Below, piece by piece: positions 1-15,577 of a DNA stretch of 64,000 bases. Origin of the DNA: a virus. The notes beneath the pieces are model-generated. The model was given only the letters and a program-made list of their open reading frames with translations. It was not told where the DNA came from and searched no databases. The position numbers were made by a program, and so were the translations under genes. The stretch covers positions 32,001 through 96,000 of the IMG/VR virus record IMGVR_UViG_3300028028_000001. One strand, written 5' to 3'. Within the stretch, counting starts at the first letter, position 1. Each line of letters starts with the position of its first letter.

Positions 1-1314
1 CGCTGGGGGTCCGTGTTTGATGCGGTTCAGGGCTCCACTGGCGACTCCGAGAAAGCGGCTCGGGTGGCTTGGGGGGTGATGAGGAAGGCTATCATGGCGG
101 TCCGTGTTCCAGGCCATACCAGAAACGGACACTATGTGAAACCCTACCTGCGGATGATGGACCGCGCCGAGGCCCAGGCGGGACCAGGCGAGCGCATCGT
201 TTACCGGGCGTCCAACGAGAACGCTCCCGAGGTCGGTACGCACTACACCGAGCAGAAGGAGCACGCGGTCGCCTACACCGATAATTCTGGTTTCGGTGGC
301 TCAAAGGTCCATCGGTACGCGATCAAGCCGCAGAACGTGGCGGATACGGTCGGGGAGGAAAGGAACGGTCTTCGAGGACTGGCGCTTGCCTACCTGCGGG
401 CGCTCGACCCTGAAGACGCGGCAGAGGTGAAGGAGAAGACCAGAAGACGACTTGGCGTGGATGACGACGAGCGGATCACGTCGAAGCACGTCGCGCAGGA
501 TTGGGATGAGCGCGGGCTGACTCATGTCTTCCATGTTCTGGAGCACGATCCCCGGGTTGAACAGGCGATATCGCAGGTCCACGACTGGATCCGGTTTGAG
601 GATGATTTCCCCGAGGGGTCGATTACCTGGAAGCGTCTTGGTGGAGAAAAGCCGATGAACAAGGGTCTTGTACTGGAGGCCTCAGATACCAACCCCGCAG
701 TCAAGCGCTGGAAGCAGATCGATCGTGGCCACTCCGAGGAAGGGCACCGCTTCCTTTCGCGGGTCCATGCGGGCGGTGGGCAAATGGCCATCACCCAGGG
801 CCATGCGGACGAGCCGCACGTCAAGAGGCTCCTTCGAGAAAAGTTGATTCAACTCAAGAGGAACCCGGGTCACCACTGGAACGAGTACACGGCGCACCTC
901 ACGAAGGAGGGCACGAAGTACCATGAGGCCTATCGAGCCGCGCACGAGCAGACAGGAAAGCAGGAGAGCCTGTTCAAGGGCGTGGTCTGCATCTACATGA
1001 TCCGCAGTGACACGATGAGGAAAAGCATCCTTGAGAAGGCGGTTATCCCGGCGCTCGACATGGTTCCGGAGGACTTGGAGGAAGACGCTACCCCGAACAC
1101 CTGGACCGAGAACGGGTATACCGTCTCATGGCGACGGGGCAAGCGCGGGCATGGGTCGGTTACCTTCGAAGGGAACGGGCTGGCTATGCCGTTCGTGATG
1201 ACCGCTGCGGGCAAGAAGCACGCTCGGATCGTCGCAAGGGACGCGTCGGCGCTGTTGGCGAAGGGCAAGATCCCGCTTCTTGACGGGGTATTCAGGATGC
1301 GGAGAAAGACATGA
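1..1314 (+). CDS. Large-protein segment whose 5' end lies outside the window; ChaB-like motif plus one HxR hairpin motif
   Basis: Frame 1 is open from nt 1. 'GDSEKAARVAWGVMRKA' resembles the ChaB family. 'VRVPGHTRNGHYVKPYLR' matches a motif shared with the next four large proteins. The stop overlaps the next start (ATGA at 1311). Confidence 0.6.
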   Translation, partial: RWGSVFDAVQGSTGDSEKAARVAWGVMRKAIMAVRVPGHTRNGHYVKPYLRMMDRAEAQAGPGERIVYRASNENAPEVGTHYTEQKEHAVAYTDNSGFGGSKVHRYAIKPQNVADTVGEERNGLRGLALAYLRALDPEDAAEVKEKTRRRLGVDDDERITSKHVAQDWDERGLTHVFHVLEHDPRVEQAISQVHDWIRFEDDFPEGSITWKRLGGEKPMNKGLVLEASDTNPAVKRWKQIDRGHSEEGHRFLSRVHAGGGQMAITQGHADEPHVKRLLREKLIQLKRNPGHHWNEYTAHLTKEGTKYHEAYRAAHEQTGKQESLFKGVVCIYMIRSDTMRKSILEKAVIPALDMVPEDLEEDATPNTWTENGYTVSWRRGKRGHGSVTFEGNGLAMPFVMTAAGKKHARIVARDASALLAKGKIPLLDGVFRMRRKT

Positions 1315-3122
1315 ACCAGATCGCGAATCAGCCGGGCGTTCATCTTGACCATTTGAAGCATAGGTGGGTTCGAGATGAGGACGTGAAACCAGGCACGCGG
1401 TTTTATGTGCCTCACCATGAGGAATTGGACGTTCGGTCTGTCAAAGACGGGAAGGCAGAGGTGGGTTTGGTTGGCCACCCCATCACTGTGGACGTGCCTG
1501 AAAAGTCGGTGAAGTACTTTCATGCAGACATGCATGGGCAGTTGAACCACAAGCCCGATAGTGGCAACGAGCATGTTGACGCCGTAATTAGAGGGGAGGG
1601 TGAACACCTCGGCAAGGGCAACGACGGGATCGTTTATCGCCACGGGGAGAAAGTGGTCAAGGTCTCAACGACCGTCCCTTACCAGCCCTTCAACCGTGGG
1701 CAGCACAGGACTCCAGAGGAAGCCCTACGGCATCTTCAAAAGGAGCACGAGGCCCATACGGCACTCCAGGGGATTCCTGGCGTGCCCGAAGTGGATGGGC
1801 AAGAGCATGAGGGGCGATACTGGATGGTTAAGCCGCATCTTTCGCCTACTGGCGTGGTCGATGAAAAAGAAGCACATCAGGTGCGCGATTCCGTCCGGGC
1901 CATGCACGCGAAGGGATGGGTTCTGGGCGATACCGTGCAGGTTGGCCGAGACAAGTCGGGCGGCATCCAGTTCATGGACCTCGGGTCTGCTCACAAGTCG
2001 GATAGCGACTACCAAAGAGAGCACGACGAAGAAAGGTTGGCCTCGTTCTTCCATCTTCATCGGTTGAAGTACACGGATCCCCCTGCTGAAGTACAGAAAA
2101 AGGAGCGGGTAGCACGCACTCTCCTGGACATGGCCATCAAACACCAGGATCCGGAAAAGGTCAGGGCGCATCGTATTGAGTGGAAACGACTGGCGAGCGA
2201 ACACAGGATGAACCTCGTCAGAAAAGACGACTTCGACGGGATGATGGCGTTTGCGGACATTACCGATGCGATGGAGAAACGGCTTGAAAAGGCCATCTTC
2301 CTCAACGGCCAAAAGCGCAACCCCAAGGACTTCGACGAAGCCGCCCTATCTCAAGGCATCCGCGTGGAGATGGAGCACACCGACGATCCGAAGATCGCGA
2401 TAGAGATCGCGATGGATCACCTTGCCGAGCGTCCGGACTACTACGATCGGCTGGAAGAGATGGAAGCGAAGCCGATTCAAAAAGCCATCCTCTCCGGGAT
2501 CCGCTTTATGTACCTACTACGCAAGTCTCAGCTCAACCTCTTCGACTGGCACGGCGAACCCGTCCAGCACGAGCACCGCGAGCCGATCCCCACCAGGCCA
2601 CGCATGGGACCGGGCCCCCTGTTCGCCGAAGAGCGAGCGTCGGCGCCCGTGCATGCCCCGCTGCCCCCTATGCCTCCTCCGACCTCGCACACCTTCACCT
2701 CCAATATTCACGTCAAGAGCCACCTTCGGCGCCTGCCGTCGGGTGAAGTGGTGGAGGTAGCCGCGCACGAGAGAACAGCCGATCGGGTAACCCACGACGA
2801 TCCGAAGCCCCGGCAGACGAAGATCACAGAGTACGCCGACAAGCCGGCGCTCTTGAAGCCGCCTTCCATGGCACCGCAGCCCCGAGAGATGCCGAAGCCC
2901 TTCACGGAAGAGCAGTTAAAAGCGATTGGAGAGGCACGGGTGCGCCAAGAGGCGGCCGGCGGAACTCCGGGACAAGGAAGGCCCTGGGTACGATGGCCCA
3001 GCCAACCAGCGCCTCTCTGCTGCGAAAGCGGGGAGACTTGGGCCCGCGCACCGGGCAGCGGCAAAGAGCGCCCCGTGGACCTCGCAGGGCGTCCTGCTCC
3101 GATGGCAGCAACTGGCGATTGA
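1311..3122 (+). CDS. Multidomain protein: protein-kinase-like domain, DUF5661-like segment and the shared QLNLF/HxR module
   Basis: G-loop 'GKGNDGIVY', 'KVVKV', 'FMDLGSA' (DFG-like). 'RVEMEHTDDPKIAIEIAMDHLAERPDYYDRLEEME' is DUF5661-like. 'LRKSQLNLFDW...IHVKSHLRRLPSGEVVEVAAHER'. GC3 drops after about 2925, so the true 3' end is uncertain. Confidence 0.7.
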   Translation: MNQIANQPGVHLDHLKHRWVRDEDVKPGTRFYVPHHEELDVRSVKDGKAEVGLVGHPITVDVPEKSVKYFHADMHGQLNHKPDSGNEHVDAVIRGEGEHLGKGNDGIVYRHGEKVVKVSTTVPYQPFNRGQHRTPEEALRHLQKEHEAHTALQGIPGVPEVDGQEHEGRYWMVKPHLSPTGVVDEKEAHQVRDSVRAMHAKGWVLGDTVQVGRDKSGGIQFMDLGSAHKSDSDYQREHDEERLASFFHLHRLKYTDPPAEVQKKERVARTLLDMAIKHQDPEKVRAHRIEWKRLASEHRMNLVRKDDFDGMMAFADITDAMEKRLEKAIFLNGQKRNPKDFDEAALSQGIRVEMEHTDDPKIAIEIAMDHLAERPDYYDRLEEMEAKPIQKAILSGIRFMYLLRKSQLNLFDWHGEPVQHEHREPIPTRPRMGPGPLFAEERASAPVHAPLPPMPPPTSHTFTSNIHVKSHLRRLPSGEVVEVAAHERTADRVTHDDPKPRQTKITEYADKPALLKPPSMAPQPREMPKPFTEEQLKAIGEARVRQEAAGGTPGQGRPWVRWPSQPAPLCCESGETWARAPGSGKERPVDLAGRPAPMAATGD

Positions 3123-3819
3123 CCCTCGCCTGTTGGATGATGAGTTCGCCGACGACTTCCCCGGATACAAGAGCCCGAAGCTCCAGGCGGTCATCCAGGC
3201 CACGAAGGACCACCTGACGAATCACCCCGAAACCGGCGCCGTGCTTTTCTGTGAGTACAACGGCGGGATTGAGGCGATGAAGTCGAGCCTGATCGAGGAA
3301 GGCTACCGCCCCGAGGACATCGGGGTCTATACGGGCAAGGTGTCAAGCCAGCGGAAACGGCGCGACCTTCAGAACGACCTGAACAGCGGCAAGATCAAGA
3401 TCCTCCTTGGCAACACGGCGGCACTTGAGACGGGCGCGAACCTCCAGAAACGCGCTAACTTTGTCGCTCATCTCAACACGCCATGGGCCCCGGATCGGCT
3501 TGTCCAGTCAACCGGGCGAGTCCATCGGCAAGGGCAGGAACGGAAGGTTACCGTATTTCGCCCGACCGGATCCGAGGTAGAAGAACTCATCGAGCGCGTT
3601 GTCTCGCGCAAGCTCCTTCAATCCTCACAGGCGACCGGCGTAACGATGGCCGCTGACTCTCATGTAGCTGTCTCCATGCGCCGAAAGGGCCGCGAAAAGC
3701 TCGACTCCTCCACGATCGCGAAACTGCTGGGAATCGACCCGTCGCTGTTGTCGCAGAAGGGCGATGAAGCAGAACGCGAGGCCGCAGAGATCAAGGAAAT
3801 GAAGAAGAGGAAGAAATGA
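2926..3819 (+). CDS. SNF2/SF2 helicase C-terminal lobe only (motifs IV-VI); probably continues the upstream ORF by a frame change
   Basis: 'LLRWQQLAIDPRLL', 'KILLGNTAALETGANLQ', 'WAPDRLVQSTGRVHRQGQ'. No ATG start (TTG at 2926) and a 197-nt overlap with 1311..3122. High GC3 in this frame from about 2926. Confidence 0.65.
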   Translation: MERHGCAKRRPAELRDKEGPGYDGPANQRLSAAKAGRLGPAHRAAAKSAPWTSQGVLLRWQQLAIDPRLLDDEFADDFPGYKSPKLQAVIQATKDHLTNHPETGAVLFCEYNGGIEAMKSSLIEEGYRPEDIGVYTGKVSSQRKRRDLQNDLNSGKIKILLGNTAALETGANLQKRANFVAHLNTPWAPDRLVQSTGRVHRQGQERKVTVFRPTGSEVEELIERVVSRKLLQSSQATGVTMAADSHVAVSMRRKGREKLDSSTIAKLLGIDPSLLSQKGDEAEREAAEIKEMKKRKK

Positions 3820-5537
3820 ACGACTCCGAAGCCACGAATCTCCTGCGCGCCTTGGCCCCCGTCGGTGGGTCTCCTGGTGGGTTCGACCCCAAGAAGCGCC
3901 GCGTGCTCGTCATGCGGCTTCATCGGTATCTGGTGGAGGATGGCGGCTACATCCCAGCGTGGCTCAAGAACGAGGCGGCCGAGATGCGGAAGGGCGTGAT
4001 CCTTTACGTCGAGTTGCACAAGGCCGCTCAACTTGGGCTCTTCGGTGGTCAGGGTCGGGAGTTTCGCCCGGAGGTGCCGAAGCCGCATGGTGGTGGTAAG
4101 CCTCGTGGGCCGCAGCAGACCGGGATGACCTCGGGCGGGCTCTTCGGCACGGTCTGGGTCAAGGACCATGATCGGGTGGTGAATGGGCACGTCGAGCACG
4201 TTGACGGTCATGAGAGGAAGGTGGTGGGGAATGTCCACGCGCCCACGTTGACAGGAAAGGAGGAAGGTGGTAGGGTCGAGAGTGAACCTTCTCCGAAAGA
4301 GGAAAGCATGACCCGGCACCCTGACGCTCCGGAAGGATTCGAACCGGTTGACATGTCCATTCATGGAGCCCATAAGGCACCATCGAACGAAAAGGGGCAA
4401 CAGGGCTCTTTCAACTACTGGTATCCGACGCTGGAATCGGCTCGGGCAGGCCAGAAGCACCATGAAGAGCAGCAACGAGTAAAGGGGGATATGAAGCGGG
4501 CGCGGGAACATGAGAAGATCGCTCGCGGATCGGCAAAGTTCATTGAGGCTGAAACTCAACGAAGAGCAAAACTCGCGGCGGCAGAGATTCGGCGCACCGC
4601 TGTTCCTTTTGTTCACCCGAGTATCTATGAATATCGGGACTACATCAGAGAGCAGGGTGGTTTCGTGGAAGATGGTGGGTGGAAGGTGCCAGCCGCAGCT
4701 CACGCCGCCATTACGGAGCACATCGAGGAGCGGAATCGGAAATTGGCCATCAAGCGCCAAACGAAGCCATCAGTAACCCCACCGGTTCCGGCCGCACTGA
4801 AATACATACCCATACAGCACTCGAACACCTACGACTATCGGGAAGACATCAAGAAAGCCGGTGGTCGGTGGGACAATAACCAGCGGGTCTGGATGGTCCC
4901 GGAAAACAGGCATGCCGAACTAATCGCCAAGATGACGCCTGCGCCTGCGCCCCCTCCCGCAGCTCCTTTGCCGACGATCGCACCAGGAGAAAAGGAATAC
5001 ACCAGATTTGAGAATGGATCGCGTCGTATGAAGCCCGCTCATCCGTTGGCTGTCGGAGACGTGGTGTTTCGAGGGGATGGCGCAAACCGAACTTACCAGA
5101 CGGTCACGAAAGTAAGGCCTTCGCTCTTCCGTTCCGAAAACGATCAGGAGGACTTTGGAGAAACCGGAAGAGGTGCAGGTTGGTATCATCCGTATACCGT
5201 TCGACCTGCTACTGAGGAGGAATCGGCCAACCTCCGCGGCAAGCACGCAGAAGCAGACGCAAAGGTCAAGGCTGCGACTGCCGCAAAAATGGCGCTACAG
5301 TCAGCCATCCAGACGGCGGAATATCCGAAGAAGGCTGAACCATCAGGAGAGAGCATCAAGATTGGTCAAAATGAAACAATTCAGGTTGAGCCAGACCTTC
5401 AACACGCGTGGCACATCAAGTATAACGGTCGTGATGGCGACAACTGGGCCTACAACAACCTGGGCGGCCACTCGATCGCGCATCGGTTCCCAATGACTCC
5501 TGAACTATCAGGACACATCGAAGCGCTGAAAGTCTAA
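3816..5537 (+). CDS. Large hypothetical protein with the shared QLGLF/HxR module and two DUF5710-like repeats
   Basis: ATGA overlap at 3816. 'LHKAAQLGLFGG...VWVKDHDRVVNGHVEHVDGHER'. Repeats 'YEYRDYIREQGGFVEDGGWKVP' and 'YDYREDIKKAGGRWDNNQRVWMVP'. Confidence 0.75.
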   Translation: MNDSEATNLLRALAPVGGSPGGFDPKKRRVLVMRLHRYLVEDGGYIPAWLKNEAAEMRKGVILYVELHKAAQLGLFGGQGREFRPEVPKPHGGGKPRGPQQTGMTSGGLFGTVWVKDHDRVVNGHVEHVDGHERKVVGNVHAPTLTGKEEGGRVESEPSPKEESMTRHPDAPEGFEPVDMSIHGAHKAPSNEKGQQGSFNYWYPTLESARAGQKHHEEQQRVKGDMKRAREHEKIARGSAKFIEAETQRRAKLAAAEIRRTAVPFVHPSIYEYRDYIREQGGFVEDGGWKVPAAAHAAITEHIEERNRKLAIKRQTKPSVTPPVPAALKYIPIQHSNTYDYREDIKKAGGRWDNNQRVWMVPENRHAELIAKMTPAPAPPPAAPLPTIAPGEKEYTRFENGSRRMKPAHPLAVGDVVFRGDGANRTYQTVTKVRPSLFRSENDQEDFGETGRGAGWYHPYTVRPATEEESANLRGKHAEADAKVKAATAAKMALQSAIQTAEYPKKAEPSGESIKIGQNETIQVEPDLQHAWHIKYNGRDGDNWAYNNLGGHSIAHRFPMTPELSGHIEALKV

Positions 5538-7537: not shown

Positions 7538-9871
7538 ATGCACCTCTATCGCCCCGTTCGATCCGCTGACGGTTCTCTTTCGCTACGTGCCTCGGAACTG
7601 GTCTTCCGTCGCCCCGATGTGGCCCCCCGCGAGCTGCGCAAGGCCCTTCGTCTTCCGATCGGCATCGGCTGGCGTGACATCGACCAGGACGTGGACGGTG
7701 GCAAGGAGAAGAGGATCGTGGAGTGGGGAACGGTCTCCCGCTACTGGCCCTCACTCGAAGCCGCCATGGCCGCAGAACGGCGCTACCTGATCCTCGGGTC
7801 GCAGGATGACGGCTACGGGATTCCCCAGGTCGAGCGGCCCGGGTCGGTCCAGGCCTGGGAAGCACGGGAGCGCGCCCGTTCGGCTCATGAGATGGTGATC
7901 TACTACTCGCCCGACGGGTGGACGGCTCTTGCTGGTGACGAGCACGGTGGGCAGGTCAAGGTGCTCGACGACTGCCGCGCGTACCGCTGGCCCTCGCTCA
8001 TGGACGCGCTCTCTGCTGAGACGGCGTGGAGAGAGAAGGCGGACGCCGCGACCCTCAAACAGGTCCAGGCCGAAGCGCGCGGTGGAGAACCGAAGCCTTC
8101 GTTCTACGGTTACGGCGCGTTCATGGACGCGGCGCGGAAGTGTGCGGAGTTCATGGCGCTTGCGGATCCGGGTGTCGGGGCGCCTCTCGTTCGGTTCACG
8201 GTGGACCTTCGCAAGGCCGCTCAAATGGGGTTGTTCGGAGGGGAGACACGGATCCCGGAGCGGTCGCATCAAATGGGCCTCTTCGGTGGGACCGCGCACG
8301 TCAAGGCGCATACCCGGGTGGTCCATGGGCATGTGATCGAGGTGAAGGCCCATGATCGGGAGGTCGAGCATGGGGCGAACCATCCTCCCGAGGTGATGGG
8401 GCACTCGGCGCCGGGACATCGGGTGGATGTGGATGCGAAGGTGGCATGGCCAGAAGTCAAAGAAGGCAACCTGTACCGCATCCATTTCGACACCCGCGAC
8501 GAAGGCCAGCCGCACGGCGACTATATCGCCAAACGAGCCTCGACGAATCATCACCAGTTCGAGAACCTTCTCAACGGCGCCCCCATGATGTTGAACCGGG
8601 ATGCGGAAGGGCAGGGGAAGCACAGTCTGAGCGGCAAGGAAGGTGTCAGGATCCGAAGCGTTACAGGGTTTGAGGATGCTCTGGATGAGGCGAAAGCCAA
8701 GCATGAGATCATCCGAAAGGACGCGGAACGGGCGGCTTTGGCACCGAAGGTTGAGGAGAAGCCCTCCATTTCCGTCGATCCGGCCCAAATCGTCAAACCA
8801 GCGGACATTCAACCACCGGGCCCCATTCGTGACTACACCGACATGAAGCCATCGGTCGGTATGAAGGTTCACGGGCACTACATGCGGTCACCCTTCACCG
8901 GCACGGTCCATAACATCGAATCCGACTCAAGCGGATACCCTGGCACCCAGAACGATCGCAGGTTGTGGGTGAAACTTGATAGCCCCCTGGTGGTCCCGGA
9001 AGGTGATTCGTCATACCCCGCCGGTCACGTTCGGCGCGAGGCAGGGGAAAGCATCATTTTCCACGGGGAAAAACAGGCGTCAGGACATACACGGGTTCAT
9101 CATGACACCCATCAAACCCTGGATTCGGTAGATAATCCGCTTCCTGGGTTGGTGCCCTTCGTAACAGACTACGATTCACGAAAGAAAACCCATACCCTGT
9201 CCGTGAACGGGAAGATGTCGAGCCATCCGACGCATGAAGCCGCGTTTGCTGCGGGGATGGAGGAGGTCAAGCCCACAACGCAACTTATCACCGAAGATGA
9301 GCTGAGAGAGCAGACCATCAAGCCCCCACCCAAGCCCACCCTATCCGTCAAACCTGCGGAAATCGTTCAGGTTATACCGGGTATGGAGCACGAACATCCG
9401 GACTTTCCAGGCCACCGGTTGACCCGTGTGCAAACCCGGGAGAGGGACATCAGTTCCCGTGGTCGGGGACATGATTTATACACAATGATTGCCGGCCCAG
9501 AAGATGACACAATGCACTGGAGCGACAAGCATGTTGGCCATGAAGTAATTTCGGACGATTATCCAAGGTCAAGGTCCATACGATCAAGCGATAGACATGG
9601 TGAAACCTATGCGCATATGCCGCTCAAGCCCGGTAGTGTGATTATGCGTCTCAAAAAGAATACCGACGGGACAACCCAGAAGTCTGCGTTAGTTGTTCCG
9701 GAAAGTGGAGGAGACACATACCCAAGACACAAAGATCAACCACTGGACGCCGATAGTTTGCCGTCTGCAACGGTAACCTCACGCAAAGCGGCTACTGGAT
9801 GGGAAACTGTAGTAGATATCCCCGAAGGGATATCGGGTGTCAAGGCTGGTAAGCGAATTTACCGAGGATAG
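7538..9871 (+). CDS. Large hypothetical protein with a duplicated QMGLF motif plus the HxR module
   Basis: 'LRKAAQMGLFGG...SHQMGLFGGTAHVKAHTRVVHGHVIEVKAHDR'. The last ~500 nt have visibly lower GC. Confidence 0.75.
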   Translation: MHLYRPVRSADGSLSLRASELVFRRPDVAPRELRKALRLPIGIGWRDIDQDVDGGKEKRIVEWGTVSRYWPSLEAAMAAERRYLILGSQDDGYGIPQVERPGSVQAWEARERARSAHEMVIYYSPDGWTALAGDEHGGQVKVLDDCRAYRWPSLMDALSAETAWREKADAATLKQVQAEARGGEPKPSFYGYGAFMDAARKCAEFMALADPGVGAPLVRFTVDLRKAAQMGLFGGETRIPERSHQMGLFGGTAHVKAHTRVVHGHVIEVKAHDREVEHGANHPPEVMGHSAPGHRVDVDAKVAWPEVKEGNLYRIHFDTRDEGQPHGDYIAKRASTNHHQFENLLNGAPMMLNRDAEGQGKHSLSGKEGVRIRSVTGFEDALDEAKAKHEIIRKDAERAALAPKVEEKPSISVDPAQIVKPADIQPPGPIRDYTDMKPSVGMKVHGHYMRSPFTGTVHNIESDSSGYPGTQNDRRLWVKLDSPLVVPEGDSSYPAGHVRREAGESIIFHGEKQASGHTRVHHDTHQTLDSVDNPLPGLVPFVTDYDSRKKTHTLSVNGKMSSHPTHEAAFAAGMEEVKPTTQLITEDELREQTIKPPPKPTLSVKPAEIVQVIPGMEHEHPDFPGHRLTRVQTRERDISSRGRGHDLYTMIAGPEDDTMHWSDKHVGHEVISDDYPRSRSIRSSDRHGETYAHMPLKPGSVIMRLKKNTDGTTQKSALVVPESGGDTYPRHKDQPLDADSLPSATVTSRKAATGWETVVDIPEGISGVKAGKRIYRG

Positions 9872-12800: not shown

Positions 12801-15577
12801 TTGACGAGGCAAGGTTCCAAAGGGAGATGGCCCAGGCCAGTATGCCGGAAGGGCAGTGGGAGACCATGGTCAAGGAACACGAAGGAGAAGGCATAACTCC
12901 AGGGCAGGCCAAGGCCCGAGCCATGTCTCACCTTGGAGAGAAGGTCAAGAATGAGGCGTATTACCAAGAACTGACGAAACCATGGGACAAGACGGCTGGA
13001 ACTGCATCTATAGACGAACCAAAGGATGTAAAACAACGTCGCCAATACCTGACGCGCGAACTCGCCGCACTCGGGAAAGAGCCCGACCGCCAAGACAAAG
13101 AGGCCAACCAGAAATGGCAAGAAGCGCGTAATGCTGTTTTTGAAAAGGCCGACACCGATTCTGGCAAGGAAGAACTTGATGAGACCAGTCCCGAATACCG
13201 GGCTTGGCAAAAACGACGTGATGCTGTTCTTGCCCGTCATCCGCGAGCGGGTATGCAAAGCGCAATCGATAGTCTCGACAAAGCCGATCCGGAGTACGCA
13301 AGCAAAGTCGAAGCCATCAAACAGGACGCAGCGACCGCCCCCACCGCCTGGGGCAACTACGTTGAAGCGCACGGTTCGCGGCAACTGGCGATCGAGGCCC
13401 TGCAAGATGAGATGAGGGGCGAATTCGTCAAGACGTACCAGGAGCACCACGGAAAGGTCACCGGGAACCCGCTACGGGTGGGCGTTCAGGACGTAACCAA
13501 CAAGGCGCGCCATATCCGGGCAACAGGATCCCCCGAGGAAATCGCGCAAGCCAGGGCAGAGGAAAGGTCCAGGCTATCCAGTCTCCAGAAGAGGCAGGGC
13601 GGCGGATTTACCGAGATGGGCGGTGCAGGGTCGGCGAAAGCCCTGTTCACAAAAGCACTTGAACAAGACGAAATCGACAAGTCAAGTCAACTCGCTATGT
13701 TCGGATCGGCTACCTCCTCGGTGGCGGACCTCCCCGAAAAGAAGATCGAGCCGAAGACCGGCCAGCGGTGGAGTCTCGGAACCCGCGCGGAATCGCAACT
13801 TGAGAGCGTCATCAATGGCGGCCTGGGCCAGCAGTTTCAACCAGGAAGCCCGATCCGGCTTTTCGGTGGGCTCAACATGGATGGCGATCGAATCCACCAG
13901 CAGCGGGTTCTTCGCCAACTCGATCGGGTCAAAAGGATGGCGGCGCTTCTCGGCACGGGCGCGGGGAAGTCGCTCACCTCGATCGCAGGGTTCACCCAGG
14001 CGCACGCGAAGGGTGAGGCATCCCACGGGCTCTATCTGGTCCCTGCCGCAGTCCAAGACCAGTTCGGCGGCGAGATGTTGCGCTACACGCAGCCCGGGAA
14101 ATACAACTGGGCAACGGGTGGCGGAAAGAGCCACGCGGAACGGGTACGGATGCTCAAGGATCCGTCTATTCATATGCGGGTTATGACACACCAGTCCTTC
14201 CGGGATACTGCCCTAAAACTCATGGCAGACCACCATGGTCGGACTACCGAGAAGATGACAGAGGACTTCGGAAAGGCAGACCCAAAGACCCGCGCCCGGT
14301 GGATGCGTGAGGCCTTCGATGCCCACGGGATCCCCCGCCACTTCGTCTATTATGACGAGGCGCACACCGCGACCTCCGAGAACGAGAAGAGCGCCTCTCT
14401 GACTCATGACGTTGCGACGGCGGTAACGCATCCGTCGAACGCTACCCATCTGCTTCTCGGGACCGCCACCCCCACGAAGAACAACACCGGAGAGATGCAC
14501 TCATGGGCCTCGCTACTCGATCCGGACAAGTACGCCGATCGGTGGAAGTTCATGCAGAACTTTGGGAGGGAAACCGCCTGGAACCCGAACGCGATCCGTC
14601 AAGAACTTGGGCACCGGGTTTACACCGCCAGAATCGACCCCGAAGGAGTATCCCGAACAGACACCGACAACCCGACCGTGGAGGAAAAGGAAGTCCAGAC
14701 TGGTGAGAATATGTGGGGTCCAACCTACGAAAAGCAGAAGGTGAAGTCTGCCGGCAAGCCGATCGAACTTCACCCTACCCAGAAGGCCCGGGTAGATGAG
14801 ATCACGGCGGCTTATGAGCAGGCATCCACCTCGTTCAAGAAGGGCCATGTGGACGTGGAGAGCATCCGGAAAATCAACCCGGCACCGTTCGAGGGTAAGA
14901 CCGATGAGCAGGCCCAAAGCATCGCGCGGAACATGATGAAGGGCCTTGGCTTCACCCGTGACGCGGCGCTGGAGCGGGCGATCAACCGCTCGCCTGTGGG
15001 CCAGAACGCGAAACTGGACGCCCTGGCCTCTGTCGTCCAGCATGACCTCGCGCAGAACTGGACCGATCGGAAAGGCAACGCGCGCAAGGGGAAGGCCTCG
15101 ATCATCTTTTCGGACTCGGCGCAGGATGGAAAACTCATCAACCAGCACCTTCGCTCTCTTGGCGTCCGCTCGGCTTTCTATCACGGTGGGCTTCCGAACG
15201 AGCAGAAAGAAGCCATCCGCACCGGGTTCCAACCCGAGCAAGGCGAGCCGAAGCACGACGTTATCGTCGCCACGTCGGCGGCCGAGGCGGGTCTGAACCT
15301 CCAACGGGCAAGCGTGCTGCACAATTACGACGTGCCCCAGACTGAGAAGAGCCACGCGCAGAGAGCCGGGCGAGCGTACCGGCAGGGGCAACTTGGCGAC
15401 GTGGAGATTCACAACTGGCACACGAACACGGCGTTCGAGCGTCGGGCGCTTCAACTGCTCAAGGAGAAGCGGTATCTCGCTTCCGTGTTTCAGACTCCGA
15501 TCGGCCATATGGACGACACAGGAACGGGCCTGCGTTATACTCGGATCATCTCACGCAAACATGAGGCTGCGGCATGA
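9875..15577 (+). CDS. 1900-aa SNF2-family helicase with long N-terminal extension (polyvalent/DarB-style architecture)
   Basis: 'GTGAGKSLTS' (Walker A), 'YYDEAHTA' (motif II), 'LLGTATPTKNN', 'ATSAAEAGLNLQ', 'QRAGRAYRQGQ'. N-terminal 'RWITVHPGGEGSTGVPILI' and a K/E/A-rich coiled region. Confidence 0.9.
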   Translation: MFTPCKCSKGCKAHAIITALDMDGTTYPVRVPYEHRYSSIGWGDRPRVRFGDSVAVEVARGEKGVQALDELGNLHRLNHGAFSTWIPERKGKALKKAEVKAGQRWITVHPGGEGSTGVPILIQEEKDGTHRVVAGAGGKLTHLRLENVKSADEYAKSKADKKAAKKEKDKTAPKEVKETKKEAHEKKREAERQFVKKVSTKLGGVSEDRKRDESESPAVARRLDAQHHRKQVNEAKKRAHGAMQAVVAERTGQERAKALTSEDTPEVSAHVQETIRAELDDEEAAQKARKEARAPKMMASRAVDPGAQEKAVVHAVEAVKQAPEQLDKTLEALGGRTDSGEVLRLSVVPAVEAKRRSLQALQDAQIIHEALSNGPPKDEKQQAIVEQALGGAKLGTEEAKEALQTAMVSKVNEAERHEVQSRKLDQIARDKGEDVADRALRATDAARAIARETQEARRLGLDNPEKTPLTVPETDELMDVVKDLQDLKAKTRALKNVVKDAEKGNFDRSRRAFKMDVQAAPKDVEMSIEEEVQRSLTEQLLGAVKTDRPEYIQGVTAGHYDALADVGLQIGGQRYLDRPTVDALGAKNAAILLRYGLDQDGHDMDAVRQAVEESHVDAVKTEAAKAIEKARSYVPGLVHEVDTTEDAEAAMAHLDAHESEIVSAQKALSSAIGRLEGTATLGQALRDKMPDSLSVRGTSLESSQQWVHSLGLHPADYEVNAARNEITIPRRSWDKLLSRDSREDIDNRRVVNEIKAGQHDIKGWLPPGIAYREASTFTAPVPSAPRMWEPLSFDGDLDEAIKTHVGARLASGEHIGEIASDISSEGVASQAPSAKEYRAALERHFPLYKEGGKERLTEALAALGPRPENENEAIEWDRKAIKAEQAEKVGLTHFADKWESWAQDYMEKKHGGEGAYHSQNLHPEDVATREAIFRTLADHPEGKIAFKPSGQLTPQEEGVIRDRYYQRMGIDPKVKVDEARFQREMAQASMPEGQWETMVKEHEGEGITPGQAKARAMSHLGEKVKNEAYYQELTKPWDKTAGTASIDEPKDVKQRRQYLTRELAALGKEPDRQDKEANQKWQEARNAVFEKADTDSGKEELDETSPEYRAWQKRRDAVLARHPRAGMQSAIDSLDKADPEYASKVEAIKQDAATAPTAWGNYVEAHGSRQLAIEALQDEMRGEFVKTYQEHHGKVTGNPLRVGVQDVTNKARHIRATGSPEEIAQARAEERSRLSSLQKRQGGGFTEMGGAGSAKALFTKALEQDEIDKSSQLAMFGSATSSVADLPEKKIEPKTGQRWSLGTRAESQLESVINGGLGQQFQPGSPIRLFGGLNMDGDRIHQQRVLRQLDRVKRMAALLGTGAGKSLTSIAGFTQAHAKGEASHGLYLVPAAVQDQFGGEMLRYTQPGKYNWATGGGKSHAERVRMLKDPSIHMRVMTHQSFRDTALKLMADHHGRTTEKMTEDFGKADPKTRARWMREAFDAHGIPRHFVYYDEAHTATSENEKSASLTHDVATAVTHPSNATHLLLGTATPTKNNTGEMHSWASLLDPDKYADRWKFMQNFGRETAWNPNAIRQELGHRVYTARIDPEGVSRTDTDNPTVEEKEVQTGENMWGPTYEKQKVKSAGKPIELHPTQKARVDEITAAYEQASTSFKKGHVDVESIRKINPAPFEGKTDEQAQSIARNMMKGLGFTRDAALERAINRSPVGQNAKLDALASVVQHDLAQNWTDRKGNARKGKASIIFSDSAQDGKLINQHLRSLGVRSAFYHGGLPNEQKEAIRTGFQPEQGEPKHDVIVATSAAEAGLNLQRASVLHNYDVPQTEKSHAQRAGRAYRQGQLGDVEIHNWHTNTAFERRALQLLKEKRYLASVFQTPIGHMDDTGTGLRYTRIISRKHEAAA

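Follow-up and report, generated by a model that had tools for sequence, protein, structure and literature searches.

A frame break in a phage polyvalent-protein island, probably left by the truncation of an SNF2 helicase gene

Why should a phage carry the last third of a helicase gene without a native start codon, its first codons lying in another frame of the gene before it? The question is raised by a 64,000-nucleotide stretch of a viral record (IMG/VR record IMGVR_UViG_3300028028_000001, contig C3:32001-96000; hereafter the window, to which all coordinates refer), where one open reading frame (ORF), here called ORF A, runs into a second one in another frame (frame B) encoding the C-terminal lobe (C-lobe, or lobe 2) of an SNF2 ATPase. 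The frame break is real but ordinary, in our view a gene cut short within a mosaic phage island, and we put at roughly 65% the probability that it is explained by an out-of-frame deletion or recombination junction between positions 2953 and 2954. Genome-wide searches were made in the metagenome-assembled genome holding the window (2.27 Mb, 60% GC, 99.4% complete). Three public sequencing runs carry the stretch (X1 from a landfill, X2 from groundwater and X3 from a third study), and all were compared as Logan contigs. The features that the argument needs are the following:

1311..3122, + strand: ORF A (P0001), 603 aa, with an ATG start and a TGA at 3120-3122.
1311..2953, + strand: the genuine coding part of ORF A, judged from codon score, homologs, Pfam, AlphaFold2 (AF2) with Foldseek, and the synonymous pattern of its differences from X3.
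Within 1311..2953, + strand: an SH3-like N-terminus, a kinase-like domain (~aa 20-275), DUF5661 (aa 346-387) and a QLNLF + HxR module (aa 407-488).
2916-2922, + strand: the A-run TTAAAAG, read from the sequence.
2917..2919, + strand: the TAA closing frame B, read from the sequence, 34 nt 5′ of the junction and also present in X2 and X3.
2926..2928, + strand: a TTG, the sole canonical start able to give the whole C-lobe (297 aa), in a poor context.
2953..2954, + strand: the putative rearrangement junction, with the ORF A lineage on its left and SNF2-derived DNA, in a different frame, on its right.
2954..3122, + strand: the out-of-frame read-through tail of ORF A, ~55 codons and the TGA at 3120-3122, by which the SNF2 fragment is read in the wrong frame.
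2954..3819, + strand: frame-B DNA making up the last third (3′) of an SNF2 helicase gene, which encodes pre-lobe helices (LLRWQQLAIDP among them), a RecA-like lobe 2 that carries motifs IV-VI, and a helical tail at the C-terminus.
3133..3135, + strand: the TTG of the record's own gene call (228 aa), which drops the conserved LLRWQQLAIDP helix and is without a Shine-Dalgarno (SD) motif.
3816..5537, + strand: the next island gene (573 aa, a weak DUF5710 match), whose ATG overlaps the stop of the C-lobe (ATGA).

An earlier note on this DNA had described a two-frame overlap of 197 nt (2926..3122), the TAA at 2917-2919, the TTG at 2926 and the TTAAAAG at 2916-2922, and all these coordinates were found correct when re-read. 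Frame B is open from 2920 to its stop at 3817-3819, and TTG 2926 and TTG 3133 are its only canonical starts 5′ of the conserved core; the record's gene call begins at the second of them, so that the overlap is avoided. The same note had pointed out that this ORF has no ATG and a poor ribosome-binding site at TTG 2926, which holds as well, since the only SD-like motif seen there is distant and weak (GGAAGAG at -19 to -13); 21 of the 23 other starts listed in the operon are ATG, many with a GAGG/GGAG-like motif upstream. As for the tail that ORF A would add beyond the junction, its translation is rich in Pro, Gly, Arg and Ala and has no homolog; translated in frame B, the same DNA is 65% identical to the SNF2 protein P0043.

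What frame B encodes is one part of a two-lobe SWI2/SNF2 ATPase. Pfam finds only Helicase_C in its product (residues 93-205, E 5e-12, nt 3196-3534), and no SNF2-rel_dom, DEAD or ResIII either there or in ORF A. Lobe 2, with motifs IV-VI and helical elements of SNF2 type, is present; lobe 1, with motifs Q, I (GxGKT), Ia, II (DExH) and III, is absent. The AF2 model of the product (predicted local distance difference test, pLDDT, 82.7) matches lobe 2 of CSB, ISWI, Ino80 and other SWI2/SNF2 ATPases. A profile hidden Markov model (hmm) of 28 full-length relatives (872 hmm positions) matches frame B from ~2980 (hmm 567-842, E 3e-126) and finds no match in frame A, whose profile scores are -0.7 and 0.6 bits. 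Both Pfam and this profile agree with the earlier reading of frame B as helicase motifs IV-VI plus a linker, with no N-lobe upstream.

The relatives show what a complete gene of this kind looks like. An exhaustive phmmer search with the C-lobe gave 37 matches below 1e-30, the best being P0043 (1052 aa, 63% identity, query 11-283 to 707-980) and the next P0044-P0058; identities across P0043-P0058 are 42-63% and lengths reach ~1700 aa. Wherever a close relative has its gene complete, the product is one SNF2 protein of 900-1200 aa with both lobes, and among the ten best relatives scanned with Pfam, Helicase_C is found in all ten and SNF2-rel_dom in nine. The exception (P0050) and the shorter relatives, whose contigs were unchecked, are probably cut at contig ends, as are the short relatives P0005, P0006, P0070, P0079 and P0097, five out of five of which start at one. 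On the contigs that were checked, no relative turned out to be a complete C-lobe gene standing alone. A comparison of the layout in homologous phages had been proposed earlier as a check, and it goes against a two-frame gene: no relative has two frames, and in every complete relative found the two lobes are encoded together in a single ORF. A blastn comparison of 1311-3819 with phage records gave no match and tblastn of the C-lobe just distant SNF2/DarB-like matches; neither a P0001 homolog nor a close C-lobe was found in 40 relatives or in the whole order (24 genomes), and there was no match of P0001 to genome contigs or of P0002 to viral contigs.

Nor is the missing lobe encoded elsewhere. 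When 16 relatives were compared with the whole genome by tblastn, matches were limited to 2950-3800 of the window (i.e., the C-lobe), and the first ~700 residues of these relatives matched nowhere in the 99.4%-complete genome; ORF A has no similarity to the N-termini of SNF2 relatives. It had been suggested that the lone lobe might pair in trans with the N-lobe of a 1900-aa SNF2 protein, the product of another gene of the island. That protein does carry the sole SNF2 N-lobe (PF00176) in the genome, but it has a C-lobe of its own and thus a complete pair, and a split helicase with its partner in trans was rejected, every superfamily 2 (SF2) N-lobe on this contig being already paired with its own C-lobe.

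The nearest known systems are the SNF2 ATPases of phages and prophages in the polyvalent DarB-like class (P0043, P0044, an L026 ORF of 914 aa, PHROG 62 and 10089), to whose last ~280 residues the frame-B product is 42-65% identical. Shared with them are the LLRWQQLAIDP pre-lobe helix, motifs IV-VI, the C-terminal tail and the predicted fold of SNF2 lobe 2, and the setting among large phage proteins is similar. Unlike them, the present locus is without SNF2-rel_dom (lobe 1 and its helical insert, ~340 aa) and the N-terminal region, an absence that is genome-wide, and its frame-B fragment has no native start codon.

Where, then, does one gene give way to the other? A change-point model of codon usage, trained on 20 ORFs of the window, places the best switch from frame A to frame B at 2958, with all positions of 2943-2970 within 2.4 natural-log (ln) units of it. 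The codon score of frame A is positive to ~2955 and strongly negative after, and that of frame B is negative before 2955; by codon score, and with no homolog for the frame A tail, the overlap does not behave as truly dual-coding DNA. No relative covers 2992-3245. A coarse profile of GC content at third codon positions leaves the switch ambiguous within 2900-3060. The earlier note had seen the coding signal move to frame B at ~2926: the switch exists, but its place by codon usage is 2958. The AF2 model of the frame-B product fits a boundary of this sort, being confident from ~residue 25 and low only at residues 1-20, which are encoded before ~2980. With a profile of the linker only, frame B alone scores 49.2 bits, a fusion at 2958 50.7, a fusion at the A-run 47.2 and frame A alone -0.7, so that fusing the two frames gains nothing significant. 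Against the closest linker (L026), BLAST gains 1 bit from 'EEQLK' of frame A. Parts of frame A ('THDDP...', 'EEQLK' and 'EARV') had looked by eye like a block of the SNF2 linker, a candidate that was dropped as a weak hint only, neither the profile nor the BLAST gain being significant.

Independent DNA supports the reality of the junction. In X1, probably the source sample, a 45-kb contig of depth 32.6 is identical to the window over 1200-4200. In X2, which comes from another study and habitat, a 230-nt contig spans 2762-2991 with zero differences and zero gaps, so that A-run, TAA and junction are all seen a second time and a slip in the assembly can be ruled out. That the break might be a sequencing indel or a chimeric join in the assembly was reasonable to ask of a GC-rich region in a metagenome-assembled genome, yet with an independently built contig and an exact bridge from a second study it is hardly credible, and the sequencing indel put forward in the earlier note can be set aside. 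The X1 run also holds a second contig (13 kb, depth 11.3) that shares with the region only two stretches of 22-25 nt (1891-1915 and 3306-3327); it may be from a distantly related phage.

X3 carries a relative with ~89-99% identity over the aligned pieces and ~94% over the two coding regions that were compared. The X3 contig 9 aligns to 2877-2953 with a single synonymous change (T2916C) and then leaves the window, with 236 nt unaligned; the 30 nt of it shown past 2953 have no significant similarity to the downstream window (p ~0.3). The point where X3 departs, between 2953 and 2954, falls together with the change point in codon usage and is ~30 nt ahead of the first SNF2 homology that can be detected; we read it as a structural breakpoint. 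These 30 nt had no exact match in the viral contig or metagenome contig collections. An alternative alignment, in which they would be collinear with the window through a net length difference of 4 nt (with the two parts in frame in X3), was rejected after a shuffle test (p ~0.3), and the junction peptide with this four-letter step (P0190) has no homolog of near length.

With these results at hand, a programmed +1 or -2 ribosomal frameshift, at the A-run (2916-2922) or elsewhere in 2920-2980, that would yield a kinase-like/helicase C-lobe fusion can be weighed. Genes of this type, such as the tail chaperone G/GT with its -1 shift and prfB with its +1 shift, have overlapping long frames, of which the downstream one is without a start. 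The present locus is alike in both respects, and its geometry would permit a shift, frame B opening at 2920 while frame A stays open and the A-run sits at the boundary. Unlike those genes, it lacks a slippery heptamer, any hungry codon or shift-prone stop preceded by an SD, a stimulatory fold and a conserved layout. No known slippery or shift-prone motif, the +1 and hungry-codon types included, is found at 2943-2970 (sequence GAGGCGGCCGGCGGAACTCCG), and RNA folding of 2900-3040 is no stronger than that of shuffles (z -0.49). The four A's of the A-run are too short for transcriptional slippage. As the place of a shift, the A-run that the earlier note had singled out is ~6 ln units worse than 2958 by codon usage, and a fusion there scores below frame B alone in the linker profile. 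The two-frame layout is found in no relative, X3 diverges at the very site, and the fusion product would still be without lobe 1. Together these make a programmed frameshift, the note's first suggestion, highly improbable.

The favored reading would run as follows. A deletion or illegitimate recombination at ~2953/2954, in an island between the portal gene and the remaining head genes, would have removed the 5′ two thirds of an SNF2 gene of ~1000-1200 aa, namely its N-terminal region and lobe 1 with motifs Q, I, Ia, II and III. Originally this may have been a gene in its own right, 3′ of the one for the kinase-like/DUF5661 protein, or else the C-terminal part of a single long polyvalent gene (kinase-DUF5661-SNF2). 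What was left of it (i.e., the 3′ third) would have been joined to the kinase-like/DUF5661 frame one base out of register. ORF A does run on through helicase DNA for ~55 codons out of frame, until it meets a TGA by chance at 3120, and the helicase frame is open by chance for 11 codons on the far side of the junction, back to the TAA at 2917, with no native start. The remaining C-lobe would be unable to act as an ATPase and is presumably either untranslated or a low-level product, as it may be translated at most weakly from TTG 2926. The event seems recent relative to the split from X3, because the C-lobe is intact and has a pattern of purifying selection. The absence of lobe 1, the place of the switch, the reality of the junction and the single ORF of every complete relative found are shown by the data, whereas we infer the direction of the event, its recency and the lack of function; in particular, the choice between a deletion here and a replacement in X3 is made by inference because just 30 nt of X3 past the junction are known.

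Several observations weigh against this reading. The undeleted ancestral arrangement was not recovered, with 30 nt of X3 known beyond the junction. In addition, the C-lobe shows no decay: there are no stops in the 299 codons of frame B, and it keeps 50 of the 54 columns that are at least 90% conserved (QST.RV.RQGQ included), where intact relatives keep 50-54 of 54-59. By the listed differences, the X3 copy of the C-lobe (3246-3683) has 16 changed codons in frame B, 15 of them synonymous and one a conservative R>K; either of the remaining frames would make 16 or 17 of 17 non-synonymous. Such a pattern fits a still-selected gene as well as it fits a recent remnant, and the undamaged C-lobe therefore means either that the partner lobe was lost recently relative to the ~6% divergence of X3 or that selection continues. 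The notion of a decaying gene, also raised earlier, survives in the sense of a truncated gene and fails as far as decay of the C-lobe is concerned. TTG 2926 lies just 3′ of the stop closing frame B, which makes a separate product possible. Finally, 'EEQLK' and 'ARV' of frame A resemble, weakly and non-significantly, the SNF2 linker of L026 and P0045, which is also compatible with an older fusion gene that has taken a small indel.

The most serious of the rivals that these observations suggest is a functional standalone SNF2 lobe 2 of 297 aa, made from TTG 2926 and kept by selection for binding DNA or a partner, as a decoy or as a packaged accessory, its origin by truncation being possible. The intact frame, the retention of all strongly conserved motif positions and the synonymous character of the differences from X3 speak for it; so do the confident AF2 folding of the product on its own, the fact that SNF2 C-lobes have been crystallised in isolation (5jxt and 5gn1 are among the fold matches), the coupling of the frame-B stop to the next gene's ATG and the occurrence of the arrangement in two studies. 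On the other hand, no relative on a checked contig is a complete standalone C-lobe gene, and the start would be a TTG with a weak, badly spaced SD-like motif in an operon of ATG starts. In addition, the codon score of frame B is negative over 2920-2955, a scan of 2400-4000 found no promoter-like site, the contig holds no partner N-lobe, and without lobe 1 there is no ATP site. We consider such a protein unlikely, if by no means far-fetched. Somewhat less likely is a more specific idea, in which the lone lobe 2 would be a kept module of a virion-packaged effector set, produced from TTG 2926 or by frameshift fusion, that binds DNA or acts as decoy or inhibitor by binding an SNF2-type defence ATPase of host or phage; if this were true, the intactness of the C-lobe and its near-purely synonymous divergence would reflect ongoing selection. 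A lone lobe 2 is biologically interesting only if expressed and selected, as a possible decoy or adaptor.

In the other rival, a small change of net +1 or -2 nt within the GC-rich GGCGGCCGGCGG at ~2950-2962 would have shifted the frame of an older fusion of ~835 aa that joined kinase-like, DUF5661 and helicase C-lobe parts. This reading draws on the position of the codon-usage change point, which lies in this repeat-like stretch, on the spacing from 'EEQLK' to the conserved 'GP..R' (39 residues in the fused reading vs 37 in L026) and on the top profile score of the fusion at 2958 (+1.5 bits). Yet gains of 1.5 bits, or of 1 bit by BLAST, are not significant, and frame A alone has no profile homology. 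Moreover, X3 is not collinear across the site, its 30 known bases being unrelated, and among 5.8 billion proteins there is no fused relative of 331-1056 aa; a search with the junction peptide gave none either. Its chance appears slim.

The finding matters chiefly for annotation. The ORF A call of 603 aa carries ~55 spurious residues at its C-terminus and the 228-aa 'helicase' call is a fragment unable to hydrolyse ATP; neither call is fit to be propagated as a helicase or a frameshift gene. At the same time, the locus would offer a clean, dated case of crude deletions remodelling phage polyvalent-protein islands, since a near relative (X3) differs at the exact breakpoint.

The gene on the left of the junction, in turn, seems to be a bona fide one, with six of its seven changed codons relative to X3 synonymous in frame A. 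Pfam recognizes in ORF A DUF5661 alone (E 1.5e-11), and kinase tests from sequence only (a PDB profile search and Pfam at E 10) were blank. The AF2 model of its N-domain (pLDDT 87), however, has kinases as all its top Foldseek matches (CurKC, CK1, ASK1 and Rio2, E 2e-7 to 2e-5), in agreement with the label 'kinase-like' of the earlier note. The predicted structure has a bilobal core, a Gly-rich loop, a VxK lysine and a DxG metal-binding motif, and aa 20-300 (1368-2210) form a compact protein-kinase-like fold after a small beta domain. G101, K102, G103, K117 and D223-x-G225 are invariant in the family, and the GKG, the VKV lysine and the DxG are so in at least nine metagenomic or prophage proteins (P0007-P0015), homologs that cover the kinase-like domain.

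The surroundings are those of a phage polyvalent-protein island. Upstream on the contig are the large terminase TerL (phrog_675, E 1e-60) and the portal, downstream are baseplate and LysM proteins, and ORF A and the C-lobe belong to a series of large ORFs on the + strand, 377 to 1900 aa in length, of which the longest has a complete SNF2 core. Polyvalent proteins are known from phages and conjugative elements; those of phages are encoded beside portal and terminase genes, and among their domains are SNF2 modules, DUF5661-type segments and a kinase that lacks the usual C-subdomain (Iyer, Burroughs, Anand, de Souza and Aravind 2017, PMC5512222). The present island is alike in all of this (i.e., large multidomain proteins by portal and terminase, with kinase, DUF5661 and SNF2), and the N-domain of ORF A fits the 'kinase lacking the C-terminal subdomain' of that work. 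Small neighbouring ORFs with single polyvalent-type domains are also described there, but the small ORF here is a truncated part of a two-lobe enzyme, joined out of frame. Exchange of cassettes was considered and rejected, as no DNA repeat of 2600-3900 that could serve it exists elsewhere in this genome. An ancestral single gene is plausible because in one relative (CAZRFD010000016.1, L030:20844-22907) a polyvalent protein of 2626 aa joins DUF5661, an Eco57I/N6 methyltransferase, SNF2-rel_dom and Helicase_C; the same contig also bears the best homolog of ORF A (P0007, 968 aa), adjoining a DNA methylase gene.

Some minor observations concern the other proteins of the island. The QLNLF + HxR module of ORF A was found with a regular expression, and a QxxLF pentapeptide occurs in each large island protein (QLNLF, QLGLF, QMGLF twice, QLAMF and QESLF; sites at 2529-2774, 4029-4217, 8222-8359, 13688-13702 and 961-975). 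Three of the proteins with it also bear a hairpin-like module, HxR...G.V...HxR, downstream, and both pentapeptide and module are absent from close SNF2 relatives of other phages. Residues 395-548 of P0001 showed no similarity to the part of the 1900-aa protein that precedes its helicase core. The downstream neighbour of P0043 (on L012) has a ~55-aa N-terminal segment weakly similar (39% identity) to the product of 3816..5537 (3816-3974 vs L012:3511-3693) and another segment 40% identical to the N-terminus of ORF A (1320-1478 vs L012:4939-5100); small modules seem to be shuffled among island proteins. In the gene 3816..5537 itself, 4083-4109 differs from X3 by 13 substitutions in 27 nt, with four consecutive codons changed from P-H-G-G to G-R-S-E in a Gly-rich stretch, whilst the differences flanking it are synonymous; it resembles a local hypervariable or recombined patch.

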